Shown here: piece after piece, positions 7,445-53,595 of the stretch
Layout: every line of letters begins with the position of its first letter
Numbering within the stretch: position 1 is the first letter of the stretch
DNA from: Rhizomicrobium sp.
GTDB taxonomy: Bacteria; Pseudomonadota; Alphaproteobacteria; Micropepsales; Micropepsaceae
Assembly: GCA_035549455.1 (NCBI GenBank)
Contig: DASZQW010000032.1
Location: 46,960 to 110,959 of the forward strand
Length of the DNA stretch: 64,000 nt
Direction: 5' to 3'
Position numbers and translations under genes: made by a program
The notes under the pieces: generated by a model
What the model was told of the DNA's origin: nothing
The model's input: only the letters and a program-made list of their open reading frames with translations
Database searches by the model: none

Positions 7445-7500
7445 TGTGTTTTCGTGGGAGTATTGAATTTGTGGCCCGTGGACCCGATAACCCCCGTTAG

Positions 7501-7581
7501 ATGAAGAAGCTTTTCGTCAAGACCTATGGTTGCCAGATGAACGCCTCCGCGCGCCACAGGCGCGCATTGGAAAGGCCATGA
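7501..7581 (+). other. 26-codon upstream ORF carrying a duplicate of miaB codons 1-15, with its stop overlapping the miaB start
   Basis: Reads [26 protein letters not shown]; TGA 7579-7581 overlaps ATG 7578. Confidence 0.85.
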
Positions 7582-8891
7582 AAAAACTTTTTGTGAAGAC
7601 CTATGGCTGCCAGATGAACGCCTATGATTCCGCCAAGATGGCGGATCTGCTGGCGCCGCTGGGCTATGCCGCGACGGACGCACCCGAAGGCGCCGACATG
7701 GTGATCCTCAACACCTGCCACATCCGCGAAAAGGCGGCGGAAAAAGTCTATTCCGAGCTGGGGCGGCTGAAACGGCTCAAGCGCGGAAAGACCGGTATGC
7801 TGATCGCGGTGGCGGGCTGCGTCGCCCAGGCCGAGGGTGAGGAGATCATCGCCCGCGCCCCGGTGGTGGACATGGTGGTGGGGCCGCAATCCTTTCACCG
7901 CCTGCCCGAAATGATCGCCCGCGCCGCCCGCGCCGAAGGCCGCAGCATCGAAACCGATTTTCCCGCCCTGGAGAAATTCGATTCCCTTCCCGCGCCGCAA
8001 GGCAGCGCGGTATCCGCTTTCCTGACGGTGCAGGAAGGCTGCGACAAATTCTGTACTTTCTGCGTGGTGCCTTATACGCGCGGCGCCGAACATTCGCGCC
8101 CGCCCCAGGCGATCCTGCGCGAAGCGGCGCAGCTGGTCGAAAAAGGCGCGCGCGAGATCGTGCTGCTGGGCCAGAACGTCAACGCCTATGACGGTCCTTC
8201 TTCTGATGGCGACGGCTGGAGCCTGGCAAAATTGTGCGCGGCGCTGGCAAAGATCGATGGCCTGGAACGCATCCGCTACACCACCAGCCATCCGCGTGAC
8301 ATGGCGGACGACCTGATCGCCGCCCATCGCGACAATCCAAAACTGATGCCCTATCTGCATCTGCCGGTGCAGTCTGGATCGGACACGGTGCTGGAAGCGA
8401 TGAACCGCCAGCACAGGGCCGATGACTATCGCCGCCTGGTGGACCGCATCCGCGCCAGCCGCCCCGATATCGCCCTGACCTCGGACTTCATTGTCGGCTT
8501 CCCCGGCGAAAGCGATGCCGATTTCGAGGCGACGCTGGGGCTGGTGCGCGACATCGGCTACGCCACCGCCTTCAGCTTCAAATACTCCCGGCGCCCCGGC
8601 ACGCCCGCTTCCACCTTGCGCAAGCAGATTCCCGAAGATGTCAAGGCGGCGCGACTGGCGGCGCTGCAGACGCTGCTATGGTCGCAGCAATATGGCTTTG
8701 ACGACTCCCAGATCGGCAAGGTGCTCGCGGTGCTGTTCGAGAAGCCCGCCCGCGACGCCGGCCAGCTGATGGGCCGCACGCCCTATCTCCAGCCGGTGCA
8801 TGTGACGGCCGACGCGGCGCGGATCGGCAGCATCGCCAATGTGAGGATCGCGCGCCGCACCGCCAACAGTCTGCACGGAGTCCTGGTTTGA
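7578..8891 (+). CDS. miaB: tRNA-2-methylthio-N6-dimethylallyladenosine synthase
   Basis: [16 protein letters not shown], radical SAM motif [22 protein letters not shown]-terminus. Confidence 0.96.
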
Positions 8892-51892: not shown

Positions 51893-52051
51893 ATGATGGC
51901 GCGTACCGCTTTGCTTTGCATCCTGGATGGTTGGGGCCCCGGCGGCGGATGCCGCCCATCGAACCCCGGCGGCGGATGCCGCCCATCGAACACCGGCGGC
52001 GGATGCCGCCCATTGATTAAGGCCAACCCCTGCAGCGAGGCGCCGGCATGA
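51893..52051 (+). other. Upstream ORF carrying a duplicate of gpmI codons 1-14 plus a repeat-encoded tail, with its stop overlapping the gpmI start
   Basis: Reads MMARTALLCILDGWG-(PGGGCRPSN)x~3-...APA*; TGA 52049-52051 overlaps ATG 52048. Confidence 0.85.
51937..52017. repeat. Three tandem 27-bp REP-like hairpin units (CCCCGGCGGCGGATGCCGCCCATCGAA)
   Basis: Units at 51937/51964/51991, each with a GGCGGC-GGAT-GCCGCC stem-loop. Confidence 0.95.
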
Positions 52052-53595
52052 CCCGTACGGCGCTTCTTTGCATCCTGGATGGTTGGGGTTGGCGTCCGGG
52101 TGATGATCCTGACAACGCCATCGCCGCCGCCACGACGCCCAACTACACGCGCCTGCTCGCGGACTGCCCCCATGCCCTGCTGGCGACCTCGGGCAATGCG
52201 GTCGGCCTGCCCAAGGGACAGATGGGCAATTCCGAAGTGGGGCACATGAATATCGGCGCCGGCCGGGTGGTGGCCCAGGACCTGCCGCGCATCGACATGG
52301 CAATCGAGGATGGCAGCCTGGCGCGCCGCCCGGTGCTGCTGGCGCTCATCGATAACGTGAAGACAAACAAGCGCGCCGTGCATGTGATGGGCCTGATGTC
52401 GCCCGGCGGGGTTCATTCCCACCAGGATCATATCGCCGCCCTGGTGAAAATCCTCAGCAGCGCCGGCGTGCCGGTGTTCGTCCATGCCTTCCTTGATGGC
52501 CGCGACACCCCACCCAAAAGCGCGCGCGGCTATGTCGAGAAATTCCTGTCCGACATTGCCGGGCTGGCCGGGGTGCGGCTCGCCACATGCTCGGGCCGCT
52601 ATTACGCCATGGACCGCGACAAGCGCTGGGACCGGGTGGAGAAGTGCTATGCCGCGATGGCCGAGGCCTCGGGTCGCCGCTTTGACGACGCCTTTGCCGC
52701 CCTCGAGTCCAGCTATGCCGAGGATGTCACCGACGAGTTCGTTGTGCCCTGCGCCCTGGGCGACTATGCGGGGATCGAGGATGGCGACGCGCTGCTGTTC
52801 GCCAATTTCCGCGCCGACCGGGCGCGCGAGATTTGCACCGCGCTTTTGGACAAGTCCTTTGCGGGCTTTGTGCGCCCGCGCGCCGTCACCTTCGGGGCGG
52901 CAGCGGGCCTGACGGAATATTCCGATGCGCTGAGGCCCTTGATGACGGCGATCTTCCCGCCGGAAGATGTGCGCGAGACCCTGGGCGAAGTGATCGCGCA
53001 GGCCCATAAAAAGCAGCTGCGCATCGCCGAGACCGAGAAATACGCCCATGTCACCTTCTTCCTGAATGGCGGACGCGAGCAGGTGTTCGAGGGCGAGGAC
53101 CGCATCCTGGTGCCAAGCCCCAAAGTGGCGACCTATGACCAGCAGCCGGAAATGAGCGCCTATCAGGTGACCGACAAACTGGAAGCGGCGATCCTGTCGG
53201 AAAAATACGACCTCATCGTCTGCAACTATGCCAATCCCGACATGGTGGGCCATACCGGGGTGATGGCGGCGGCGGTCAAGGCGGTCGACGTCATCGATGA
53301 ATGTCTGGGGCGGCTGGTGACGGCGCTGAAGAAAGTGGACGGCGTCATGCTGCTCACTGCCGATCACGGTAATATCGAGATGATGAAGGACCCCAAGACC
53401 CACGAGCCCTATACCGCCCACACCATGCTGGATGTGCCGATCATCGCCTATGGCGCGCCCAAGGGCGTGAGCCTGGAAAATGGCCGGCTGGCCGATGTCG
53501 CGCCCACGCTGCTGGCGCTGATGGGCCTGGCAAAGCCGGACCTGATGACCGGCCATTCGCTGCTGGCCCAGAGCCAAAAAAGACAGGGCGCGTGA
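52048..53595 (+). CDS. gpmI: 2,3-bisphosphoglycerate-independent phosphoglycerate mutase
   Basis: ILDGWG, GQMGNSEVGH.NIGAGR, GGVHSH, GRYYAMDRD.RW, AETEKYAHVTFF, NYANPDMVGHTG and TADHGN motifs. Confidence 0.97.
   Translation: MTRTALLCILDGWGWRPGDDPDNAIAAATTPNYTRLLADCPHALLATSGNAVGLPKGQMGNSEVGHMNIGAGRVVAQDLPRIDMAIEDGSLARRPVLLALIDNVKTNKRAVHVMGLMSPGGVHSHQDHIAALVKILSSAGVPVFVHAFLDGRDTPPKSARGYVEKFLSDIAGLAGVRLATCSGRYYAMDRDKRWDRVEKCYAAMAEASGRRFDDAFAALESSYAEDVTDEFVVPCALGDYAGIEDGDALLFANFRADRAREICTALLDKSFAGFVRPRAVTFGAAAGLTEYSDALRPLMTAIFPPEDVRETLGEVIAQAHKKQLRIAETEKYAHVTFFLNGGREQVFEGEDRILVPSPKVATYDQQPEMSAYQVTDKLEAAILSEKYDLIVCNYANPDMVGHTGVMAAAVKAVDVIDECLGRLVTALKKVDGVMLLTADHGNIEMMKDPKTHEPYTAHTMLDVPIIAYGAPKGVSLENGRLADVAPTLLALMGLAKPDLMTGHSLLAQSQKRQGA

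Follow-up and report, generated by a model that had tools for sequence, protein, structure and literature searches.

Prophage e14 and phage 21 integrate into the icd gene of Escherichia coli and supply it with a replacement 3' end. Homology-facilitated illegitimate recombination is a known outcome of natural transformation in Acinetobacter, Streptococcus pneumoniae and Pseudomonas stutzeri, and we know of no description in which it duplicates the edge of its anchor. Insertion with long target duplication, described by Nobusato, Furuta and Kobayashi, leaves direct repeats of tens to hundreds of bp around the insert, has a single-copy empty allele and involves no transposase or integrase; the repeats sometimes overlap gene 3' ends, and the species are mostly naturally competent (PMC2853133). 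The mycobacterial interspersed repetitive units (MIRU; Supply 1997) are small intercistronic repeats that are read as short open reading frames (ORFs) overlapping the flanking stop and start codons, with a variable tandem copy number (PMC3184786). The locus described here is the miaB gene in a 64,000-nt stretch of a Rhizomicrobium sp. genome (assembly GCA_035549455.1, contig DASZQW010000032.1, positions 46,960–110,959), referred to as the window. The gene is preceded by a silently different copy of its own start, with a hairpin-bearing spacer between the two copies. It is one of about 27 duplicated gene ends in this genome. Literature searches found no published description of duplicated gene ends around units resembling repetitive extragenic palindromes (REPs).

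The miaB coding sequence is on the forward strand at positions 7578–8891 and encodes 437 aa. It matches the TIGR01574 equivalog over its full length (498 bits against a cut-off of 355, profile positions 1–437). The 5' end is part of a direct repeat of 46 nt, positions 7501–7546 and 7578–7623 on the forward strand, with 41 of the 46 positions identical and a start-to-start distance of 77 nt. Each copy spans 15 codons and one additional nt, and the two encode the same 15 amino acids. The five differences are all synonymous third-position changes (AAG/AAA twice, TTC/TTT, GTC/GTG and GGT/GGC). Copy 2 (7578–7623) is the functional start, with AAA AAA CTT TTT GTG as codons 2–6. The spacer between the copies is 31 nt (7547–7577, forward strand) and has the hairpin GCGCGCC-ACA-GGCGCGC at positions 7549–7565, a perfect 7-bp stem (7549–7555 with 7559–7565) and a 3-nt loop. 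It is followed by ATTGGAAAGGCC, which contains a Shine-Dalgarno (SD)-like GGAAAGG at positions 7569–7575. Copy 1 (7501–7546) opens an upstream ORF (uORF) of 26 codons (7501–7581, forward strand) that consists of the orphan start and a spacer-encoded part, and its TGA (7579–7581) overlaps the miaB ATG (7578–7580). The initial annotation had described this synonymous copy, the perfect hairpin and the TGA-ATG overlap, and all are confirmed by the sequence. A simple tandem duplication is rejected, since the spacer is unlike both what lies upstream of copy 1 and what lies downstream of copy 2; slippage had already been argued against on the basis of the synonymous divergence and the exact junction.

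The gene upstream of miaB is olsA. Between the two genes is a probable native miaB promoter (7463–7491, forward strand), which consists of TTGAAT (7463–7468), a 17-nt spacer and GATAAC (7486–7491), and which is 9 nt from the upstream ATG. GATAA is invariant and TTGA nearly so across 11 aligned miaB upstream regions of the genus. A consensus promoter scan made no call at this TTGAAT-N17-GATAAC sequence, and its function as promoter is probable solely from conservation and spacing. The distance between promoter and ATG suggests that the native miaB transcript would be leaderless or nearly leaderless.

Roughly 200 miaB start regions, including 120 from a metagenome scan, were compared by pattern scans and alignment. 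G-numbers below denote congener or relative genomes, and L-numbers denote loci, many of them on metagenome contigs. The genus has three miaB allele states, an empty state (N), which is the majority, a state with the hairpin only (R) and a duplicated state (D). G009, G021 and G001 (MiaB 84–86% identical) have a single miaB start and represent the empty allele. The conserved block upstream of this start has TTGAAT-N17-GATAAC/A, then 9–10 nt and ATG, and its counterpart in the window is the sequence around copy 1. Copy 1 is therefore the original miaB start, still beside its native promoter but severed from the gene (the orphan). Compared with the empty alleles, the window has a 77-bp insert that consists of the 31-nt spacer and a second copy of the first 46 nt. 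The proposal of an insertion at miaB is thus borne out by the empty site in relatives and by their promoter alignment. The downstream copy is the inserted one, as had been supposed; it is distinct from the orphan, serves as the functional start and accompanies the hairpin spacer.

In the R alleles, which are those of G023 and of six metagenome contigs (L168/L198/L225, L259, L260 and L277), the -10 box and the ATG are separated by a 27-nt unit, CTAGCCGCGCCGnAGGCGCGCGTTGAA, present one to three times. The window spacer is homologous to the pre-miaB spacers of these alleles and of L176. The D alleles are those of the window and of L176 and L271, which are contigs from two metagenomes. L176 and L271 have the same junction as the window, after ATGAACGC (AACGC). 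Their spacer, CCCGCGCGCCAAAGGCGCGCATCGGAAAGACGGCC, is homologous to that of the window and has a conserved stem and a different loop, and it is 3 nt longer. The uORF TGA again overlaps the miaB ATG (CCATGA), and the spacing is 80 nt compared with 77 nt in the window, both equal to 2 mod 3. By gene body, L176/L271 fall within the G015/G018 clade and are clearly more diverged from the window than are the window's close congeners, and the nearest relatives in that clade (L197, G015 and G018) have N-type miaB. GTG at codon 6 is present only in copy 2 of the D alleles among the roughly 200 loci. This implies a single origin of the spacer and copy-2 block, which either dates from early in the genus and was lost many times since, or spread by homologous recombination. 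In other members of the G015/G018 clade (L006, L005 and L197, from G015, G018 and a metagenome relative) an olsA-miaB intergenic region of ~170 nt, comprising a REP and the promoter, is absent and miaB almost directly follows olsA; L176 and L271 have the whole intergenic region and the duplicated start.

The same architecture had been proposed at gpmI and is confirmed there. A 52-codon uORF (51893–52051, forward strand) contains the orphan start (51896–51936), three 27-nt hairpin units (51937–52017) and a linker, and its TGA overlaps the gpmI ATG at position 52048. The gpmI coding sequence (52048–53595, forward strand; TIGR01307, 670 bits) begins with the functional copy at 52048–52088, which is identical to the orphan at 35 of 41 positions. 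The gpmI gene of G015 has the window's junction with one hairpin unit and a GTGA overlap. The spacings of 155 nt (window) and 101 nt (G015) are both 2 mod 3. As the hairpin units are 27 nt, or nine codons, changes in array size keep the uORF frame. The gpmI start is empty in G009, G001, G018 and G041. In G021 and G023 the short gpmI leader, TATTTTGC joined to CCGGCATG, is the exact remainder expected if the orphan and hairpins were deleted from a D allele, and it looks like a deletion derivative. The hairpin units at gpmI (51937–52017) and those in the miaB leaders of L259 and L277 are unrelated in sequence, and both are 27 nt and present in one to three copies.

Every gene end of the window's genome, a 44-contig draft of 2.5 Mb that is 98% complete (C-numbers denote its contigs), was compared at the protein level with its 400-nt flank, and the reverse-complemented flank served as control. 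The scan for C-terminal duplicates gave 20 matches at a score of at least 50, compared with 2 in the control; that for N-terminal duplicates gave 21 matches at a score of at least 55, compared with 1 in the control. After inspection there are about 9 duplicated starts, including miaB, gpmI, kdsB, dnaQ (three copies) and an MTA-phosphorylase-like gene. The duplicated ends number at least 14 (about 18 with weaker candidates) and include those of trx, ftsK and a PDZ protein. This agrees with the suggestion that the arrangement recurs at other loci. The further idea of an element specific to gene 5' ends is not supported, in view of the duplicated 3' ends.

One edge of each repeat is the start codon or the stop codon, even in identical (young) pairs, with one exception that involves two overlapping genes. 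A TGA/TNA or CTAG target site was considered for these edges and rejected, since the starts ATGCGC, ATGCCT and ATGGGT do not fit. An origin of the exact ATG boundary from leaderless mRNA or cDNA was also rejected, as kdsB, dnaQ and gpmI have ordinary SD leaders. The flanking repeats are 30–95 nt and variable in length, and the inserts are 31–111 nt and are hairpins or resemble untranslated regions (UTRs). The start-to-start spacings of the nine N-terminal candidates are 2 mod 3 in six and 1 mod 3 in three; a spacing of 0 mod 3 is never seen. Where N-terminal cases were examined, the stop of the uORF either shares bases with the true start codon (NTGA) or falls no more than 10 nt inside the gene. 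A uORF stop that overlaps the next start is also present at kdsB, at the mtaP-like gene and at C33:5928, where there is no gene-end duplicate.

Identical or nearly identical pairs are found at C10:13580 (0 differences in 91 nt), C12:8521 and dnaQ (C32:12071–12345), the last with three copies of the first ~19 codons and two spacers. The kdsB orphan follows the native AAGGAAC Shine-Dalgarno sequence, as in relatives. At the 3' end of trx it is the orphan that adjoins the native downstream flank. Some relatives have the convergent gene almost directly after trx, and others have different inserts right after the stop. In the window's genome and in G009 alike, two copies of the 3' end of the PDZ-protein gene enclose the same dispersed repeat of ~95 bp, and the orphan in G009 is frameshifted.

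Several spacers belong to families dispersed through the genus, i.e., family A, an ~88-bp family present in dozens of copies per genome (family B, the trx family) and the PDZ spacer family. At the duplicated loci with a family A spacer the GCCGACGCTCC end always adjoins the orphan and the TTTTGGTCGC end is toward the functional copy. The miaB hairpin recurs in the same genome at C33:5928 and in the duplicated 3' end of ftsK. These sequences, together with the 27-nt arrays and families A and B, are GC-rich palindromic multi-copy units of the REP type. They do not have the form of miniature inverted-repeat transposable elements (MITEs), as the flanking repeats are long and variable and most family B copies have no flanking repeat above background. 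Seven of 21 spacers are single-copy in the genome. Every N-terminal spacer closes with an A-rich tract followed by an SD-like, G-rich one, and a short gap then leads to the start codon; by this layout these spacers look like another allele's own 5' UTR.

Divergence between the two copies was determined for 22 loci by Nei-Gojobori counts (255 synonymous and 759 nonsynonymous sites). There are 94.5 silent and 48.5 replacement differences, and the proportions of differing synonymous and nonsynonymous sites are 0.37 (pS) and 0.064 (pN), with a pN/pS of 0.17. The nonsynonymous fraction of the differences is 0.34, which is below (p = 2e-10) the 0.60 expected where the orphan drifts neutrally and the functional copy accepts silent changes only. 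Many of the replacement differences are at the fraying inner boundary. With the low ratio and the deficit of replacements, both copies have the appearance of working gene ends shaped by selection on protein. Across these examples the divergence is mainly synonymous and not random. The dedicated recoding element envisaged earlier is unnecessary, as silent-only divergence is expected of two functional alleles from related lineages. Gene conversion alone was rejected as a source of silent-only divergence by a rate argument; it would give equal per-site silent and replacement divergence in the orphan. An A+T enrichment of the functional copy was rejected as a general rule, as the comparison of G+C at third codon positions between functional copy and orphan was inconsistent over the 14 C-terminal loci measured.

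There is about an even chance, in our view, that the duplicated ends represent the join of two alleles of one gene with non-homologous flanks, with expression rescued by termination-reinitiation. One allele would have the native flank and the other a non-homologous, hairpin-bearing flank; at miaB, related lineages often have such a hairpin-only allele. Incoming DNA would pair with the resident gene just up to the coding boundary, and the other end of the incoming piece would join illegitimately within the resident gene, 46 nt in at miaB. The process would be homology-facilitated illegitimate recombination or insertion with long target duplication. Under this model the outer edge of the repeats is fixed at the start or stop codon because homology ends at the coding boundary, and the inner edge, beside the hairpin base, is arbitrary because the join inside the gene is illegitimate. 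The copies would differ almost only silently because both were working gene ends in related lineages. The silent divergence, which ranges from 0 to about 30%, would then represent the distance between donor and recipient lineages, possibly increased by subsequent homologous exchange with functional alleles. Once formed, the allele could be inherited or spread by ordinary homologous recombination, and could amplify, as with the three copies at dnaQ, or collapse via recombination between the repeats. Coexistence of the N, R and D alleles is expected under the model, as observed. It would also explain the UTR-like ends of the spacers and the occurrence at both ends of so many genes. At what would be the illegitimate joint in miaB there is only a possible CCT(A) microhomology.

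Several observations weigh against the joining of two alleles. No donor allele with the exact spacer and AAA AAA CTT TTT GTG was found, and the hairpin-only alleles have GTC at codon 6. Sliding identity between miaB of the window and seven congeners reveals no divergent 5' tract, and no foreign tract is detectable past codon 10. The two copies in one genome also share residues or codons specific to their own lineage while silent sites differ. The PDZ-protein copies share Ser8 and Ala13 in the window's genome and Asp3 in G009, the gpmI copies share a 23-nt own-specific core and an own-specific Thr, and the trx copies share the own-specific codons TCC, GTT and GCC. These shared features require a closely related donor or later short conversion patches. 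They also speak against the foreign replacement start suggested in the initial annotation, as does the lack of a foreign mosaic in miaB. When polarised by outgroups, derived silent changes number four in the functional copy and one in the orphan, at both miaB and trx, an asymmetry that the model does not predict. To our knowledge, homology-facilitated illegitimate recombination has been shown experimentally mainly as insertion with deletion, not duplication.

A broader reading is more speculative, and we put it forward as a tentative suggestion of rather low probability. A general, hitherto undescribed process may install hairpin segments at coding boundaries of this genus together with a spare, silently different gene end, with the stranded copy actively kept protein-like. 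These would be self-rescuing, recombination-borne insertions and would form a distinct class of mobile DNA, one able to do without an enzyme of its own. The upkeep of the orphan would be by selection, either for harmless loss of the insert or for uORF function, or by constant exchange with functional alleles.

The anatomy of the miaB leader suggests how the insert could be tolerated at present, with translation of the uORF as a prediction of the model. The leader folds with a delta G of -19.9 kcal/mol (z of -2.45), and part of GGAAAGG is paired with CCUCC of uORF codons 16–17. Transcription would begin a few bases ahead of the old miaB ATG, and ribosomes would start at this ATG and translate the 26-codon uORF. 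This translation would open the -20 kcal/mol hairpin, which otherwise engages part of the GGAAAGG in pairing. On reaching the UGA, which shares bases with the real AUG (AUGA), the ribosomes would terminate and then reinitiate for miaB. Selection for coupling is supported by the retention of frame and overlap at two loci, each in two species, where the spacer has changed in length, and also by the N-terminal spacings, which are never in frame. The uORF and ATGA arrangement behind the translational coupling first proposed is a conserved, non-random feature, kept with a 3-nt longer spacer at miaB and with one or three units at gpmI. From this organization the insert looks like one made harmless by termination-reinitiation coupling and not like a purpose-built regulator.

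The rival with the best support is in-situ insertion of a mobile hairpin of the REP or MITE kind that duplicates 30–90 bp of its target, where only insertions that leave the gene end intact survive and the copies diverge in place. We consider it doubtful, although it accounts for several features. Pairs that are identical or nearly so (C10:13580, C12:8521 and dnaQ) are tandem-amplified as local duplication predicts, own-lineage codons are common to both copies at trx and gpmI, many spacers are from repeat families dispersed through the genus, and there is a documented precedent, with other cargo, for insertion with long target duplication (PMC2853133). However, among 23 copies of the trx family long flanking repeats are found only at trx and in two tandem arrays, and the ~88-bp family thus does not normally leave such a footprint. 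A staggered cut that ignores codons would not give the exact start- and stop-codon edges seen even in young pairs, the single-copy spacers do not fit a mobile repeat, and divergence in place predicts about 60% nonsynonymous differences where 34% are observed. A PF01797 search of the genome, at its 98% completeness, found no Y1/RAYT transposase; the same search matched in 6 of 14 control genomes.

A selected regulatory leader is unlikely. In this explanation a uORF that mimics the MiaB N-terminus would, together with the hairpin, tune miaB translation, e.g., to translation capacity or tRNA-modification state, and either the peptide or its codons would be selected. In its favour, two distant lineages retain the duplicated allele together with its frame and ATGA overlap, the hairpin has a conserved stem and a variable loop, and the SD-like site is partly sequestered. 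Moreover, the orphan shows four silent and no replacement changes between the window and L176/L271, while the spacer-encoded part of the uORF shows three replacements and an inserted codon. Silent sites in miaB codons 7–15 are, however, almost invariant in all alleles, so the conservation of the orphan carries little information. Most congeners have no uORF and several have the hairpin but no orphan, and an Rfam search of the miaB leader gave zero families at E<=1. The same duplication at 3' ends and in unrelated genes (gpmI, kdsB, dnaQ, trx and ftsK) has no common regulatory logic, and the earlier notion of an N-terminal 'decoy leader' makes no sense at at least 14 duplicated 3' ends.

A scar of an integrative element, such as a phage, an island or a miniature derivative that targets a gene end by site-specific recombination and carries a replacement end, is still less probable. 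The topology is the same as for e14 in icd, where the insert comes with a functional end and the native end, now displaced, persists next to it as a relic with silent differences. Unlike that system, there is no integrase and no prophage, many loci are involved, and the effect extends to both ends of genes. In the roughly 200 compared miaB start regions the largest insert is three 27-nt units, and no cargo, nuclease or integrase was found there, such as the initial annotation had suggested seeking between the copies in relatives. For about 27 loci with unrelated spacers and variable repeats, a matching number of site specificities would be required. An artefact of assembly or binning in which two strains were joined, which a 44-contig draft might suggest, is very unlikely, because independent assemblies show the same architecture with homologous junctions (miaB in L176/L271 from two metagenomes, gpmI in G015 and the PDZ 3' end in G009).

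The joined-allele explanation can be placed among the known systems as follows. The insert would work like the MIRU-type translated repeats and leaves the footprint expected of insertion with long target duplication; it does not fit a MITE, a REP-RAYT element or an integrase-borne insertion. It shares with insertion with long target duplication an insert between direct repeats of more than 30 bp, a single-copy sequence in empty relatives (miaB, gpmI, trx and kdsB) and no mobility gene. The cargo of that process is several kb of restriction-modification genes between near-identical repeats (PMC2853133), whereas here the inserts are short hairpin or UTR-like sequences. A further contrast is that here the repeat edge is the coding boundary, the differences are mainly silent and expression would depend on a coupled uORF. 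With homology-facilitated illegitimate recombination it shares a one-sided anchor and an illegitimate join, which fit the seamless junction on the gene side and the arbitrary junction on the hairpin side. The likeness to MIRU lies in the 27-nt (nine-codon) units, in one to three copies, and in the ATGA overlaps, with translation predicted from the sequence; unlike the case here, MIRUs are not reported between duplicated gene-end copies. REP/BIME, REPIN-RAYT and the Rickettsia palindromic elements are likewise short GC-rich palindromes, dispersed and in tandem, beside or inside genes and sometimes in frame. In contrast to REP/REPIN-RAYT, there is no Y1/RAYT gene here, the units are tied to duplicated gene ends and several spacers are single-copy.

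If the joining of alleles is correct, it represents a recombinase-free route for short structured segments into the ends of housekeeping genes without killing the genes. Such insertions would leave 'recoded' duplicates that are easily taken for leader peptides, pseudogene fragments or annotation errors. They would also provide natural examples of genes that have moved from a native, possibly leaderless, start to uORF-coupled translation. The number of loci in a 2.5-Mb genome, together with three allele states in the genus, is suited to measuring the illegitimate joins that accompany homologous recombination, and the same loci could test why stranded copies stay protein-like. The main interest is the frequency in this genome and the unexplained protein-like conservation of the stranded copies.

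Additional observations concern the miaB protein and individual repeat units. The longest miaB ORF opens at a TTG at position 7530 within the uORF region, and automatic annotation is likely to be 16 codons too long. An exact-protein look-up of the window MiaB gave no record. Among the contig matches listed, the best named is from a Hyphomicrobiales metagenome-assembled genome (77%), followed by Rhizomicrobium/Micropepsaceae (68–69%); these are distant relatives that give a rough placement.

At C33:5900–5970 the miaB hairpin, CCCCGCGCGCCACAGGCGCGCCAT, is within an 11-codon ORF, MDPARHRRAIK, which ends in a TGA that overlaps the start codon, ATG, of the following gene (start MSILLVGCGRMG). The reading frame through the hairpin is that of the miaB uORF (ARHRRA), and there is no gene-end duplicate. 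A 32-nt family A unit, TTTGGTCGCTCCGGCTCCCGCCGACGCTCCGG, is apparently in frame inside an RlmN-like gene at C11:15049–15080 (in the ...NIVMMGMGEPL... region). At C12:22384 and C17:333, family A units are exactly between convergent stops, in the order TAA, TTTTATGGTCGC...GCCGACGCTC, TTA in the one arrangement and TAG, unit, CTA in the other, and the unit ends abut or supply both stops.

In kdsB of G021 (L154) and G023 (L150) a different small hairpin, CCCGGC...GCCGGG, and AAAAAGG are located between the native SD and the ATG, and kdsB of G021 also has an 8-nt tandem start duplication, ATGAATCCATGAATCC. Tandem amplifications of 60–220-bp units, each a hairpin repeat with adjacent sequence, are present at dnaQ, C12:8488–8673, C13:154616–154858 and C18:7050–7313. 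At C12:8521 the last 10 codons of the gene are in three copies, of which the outermost is diverged.

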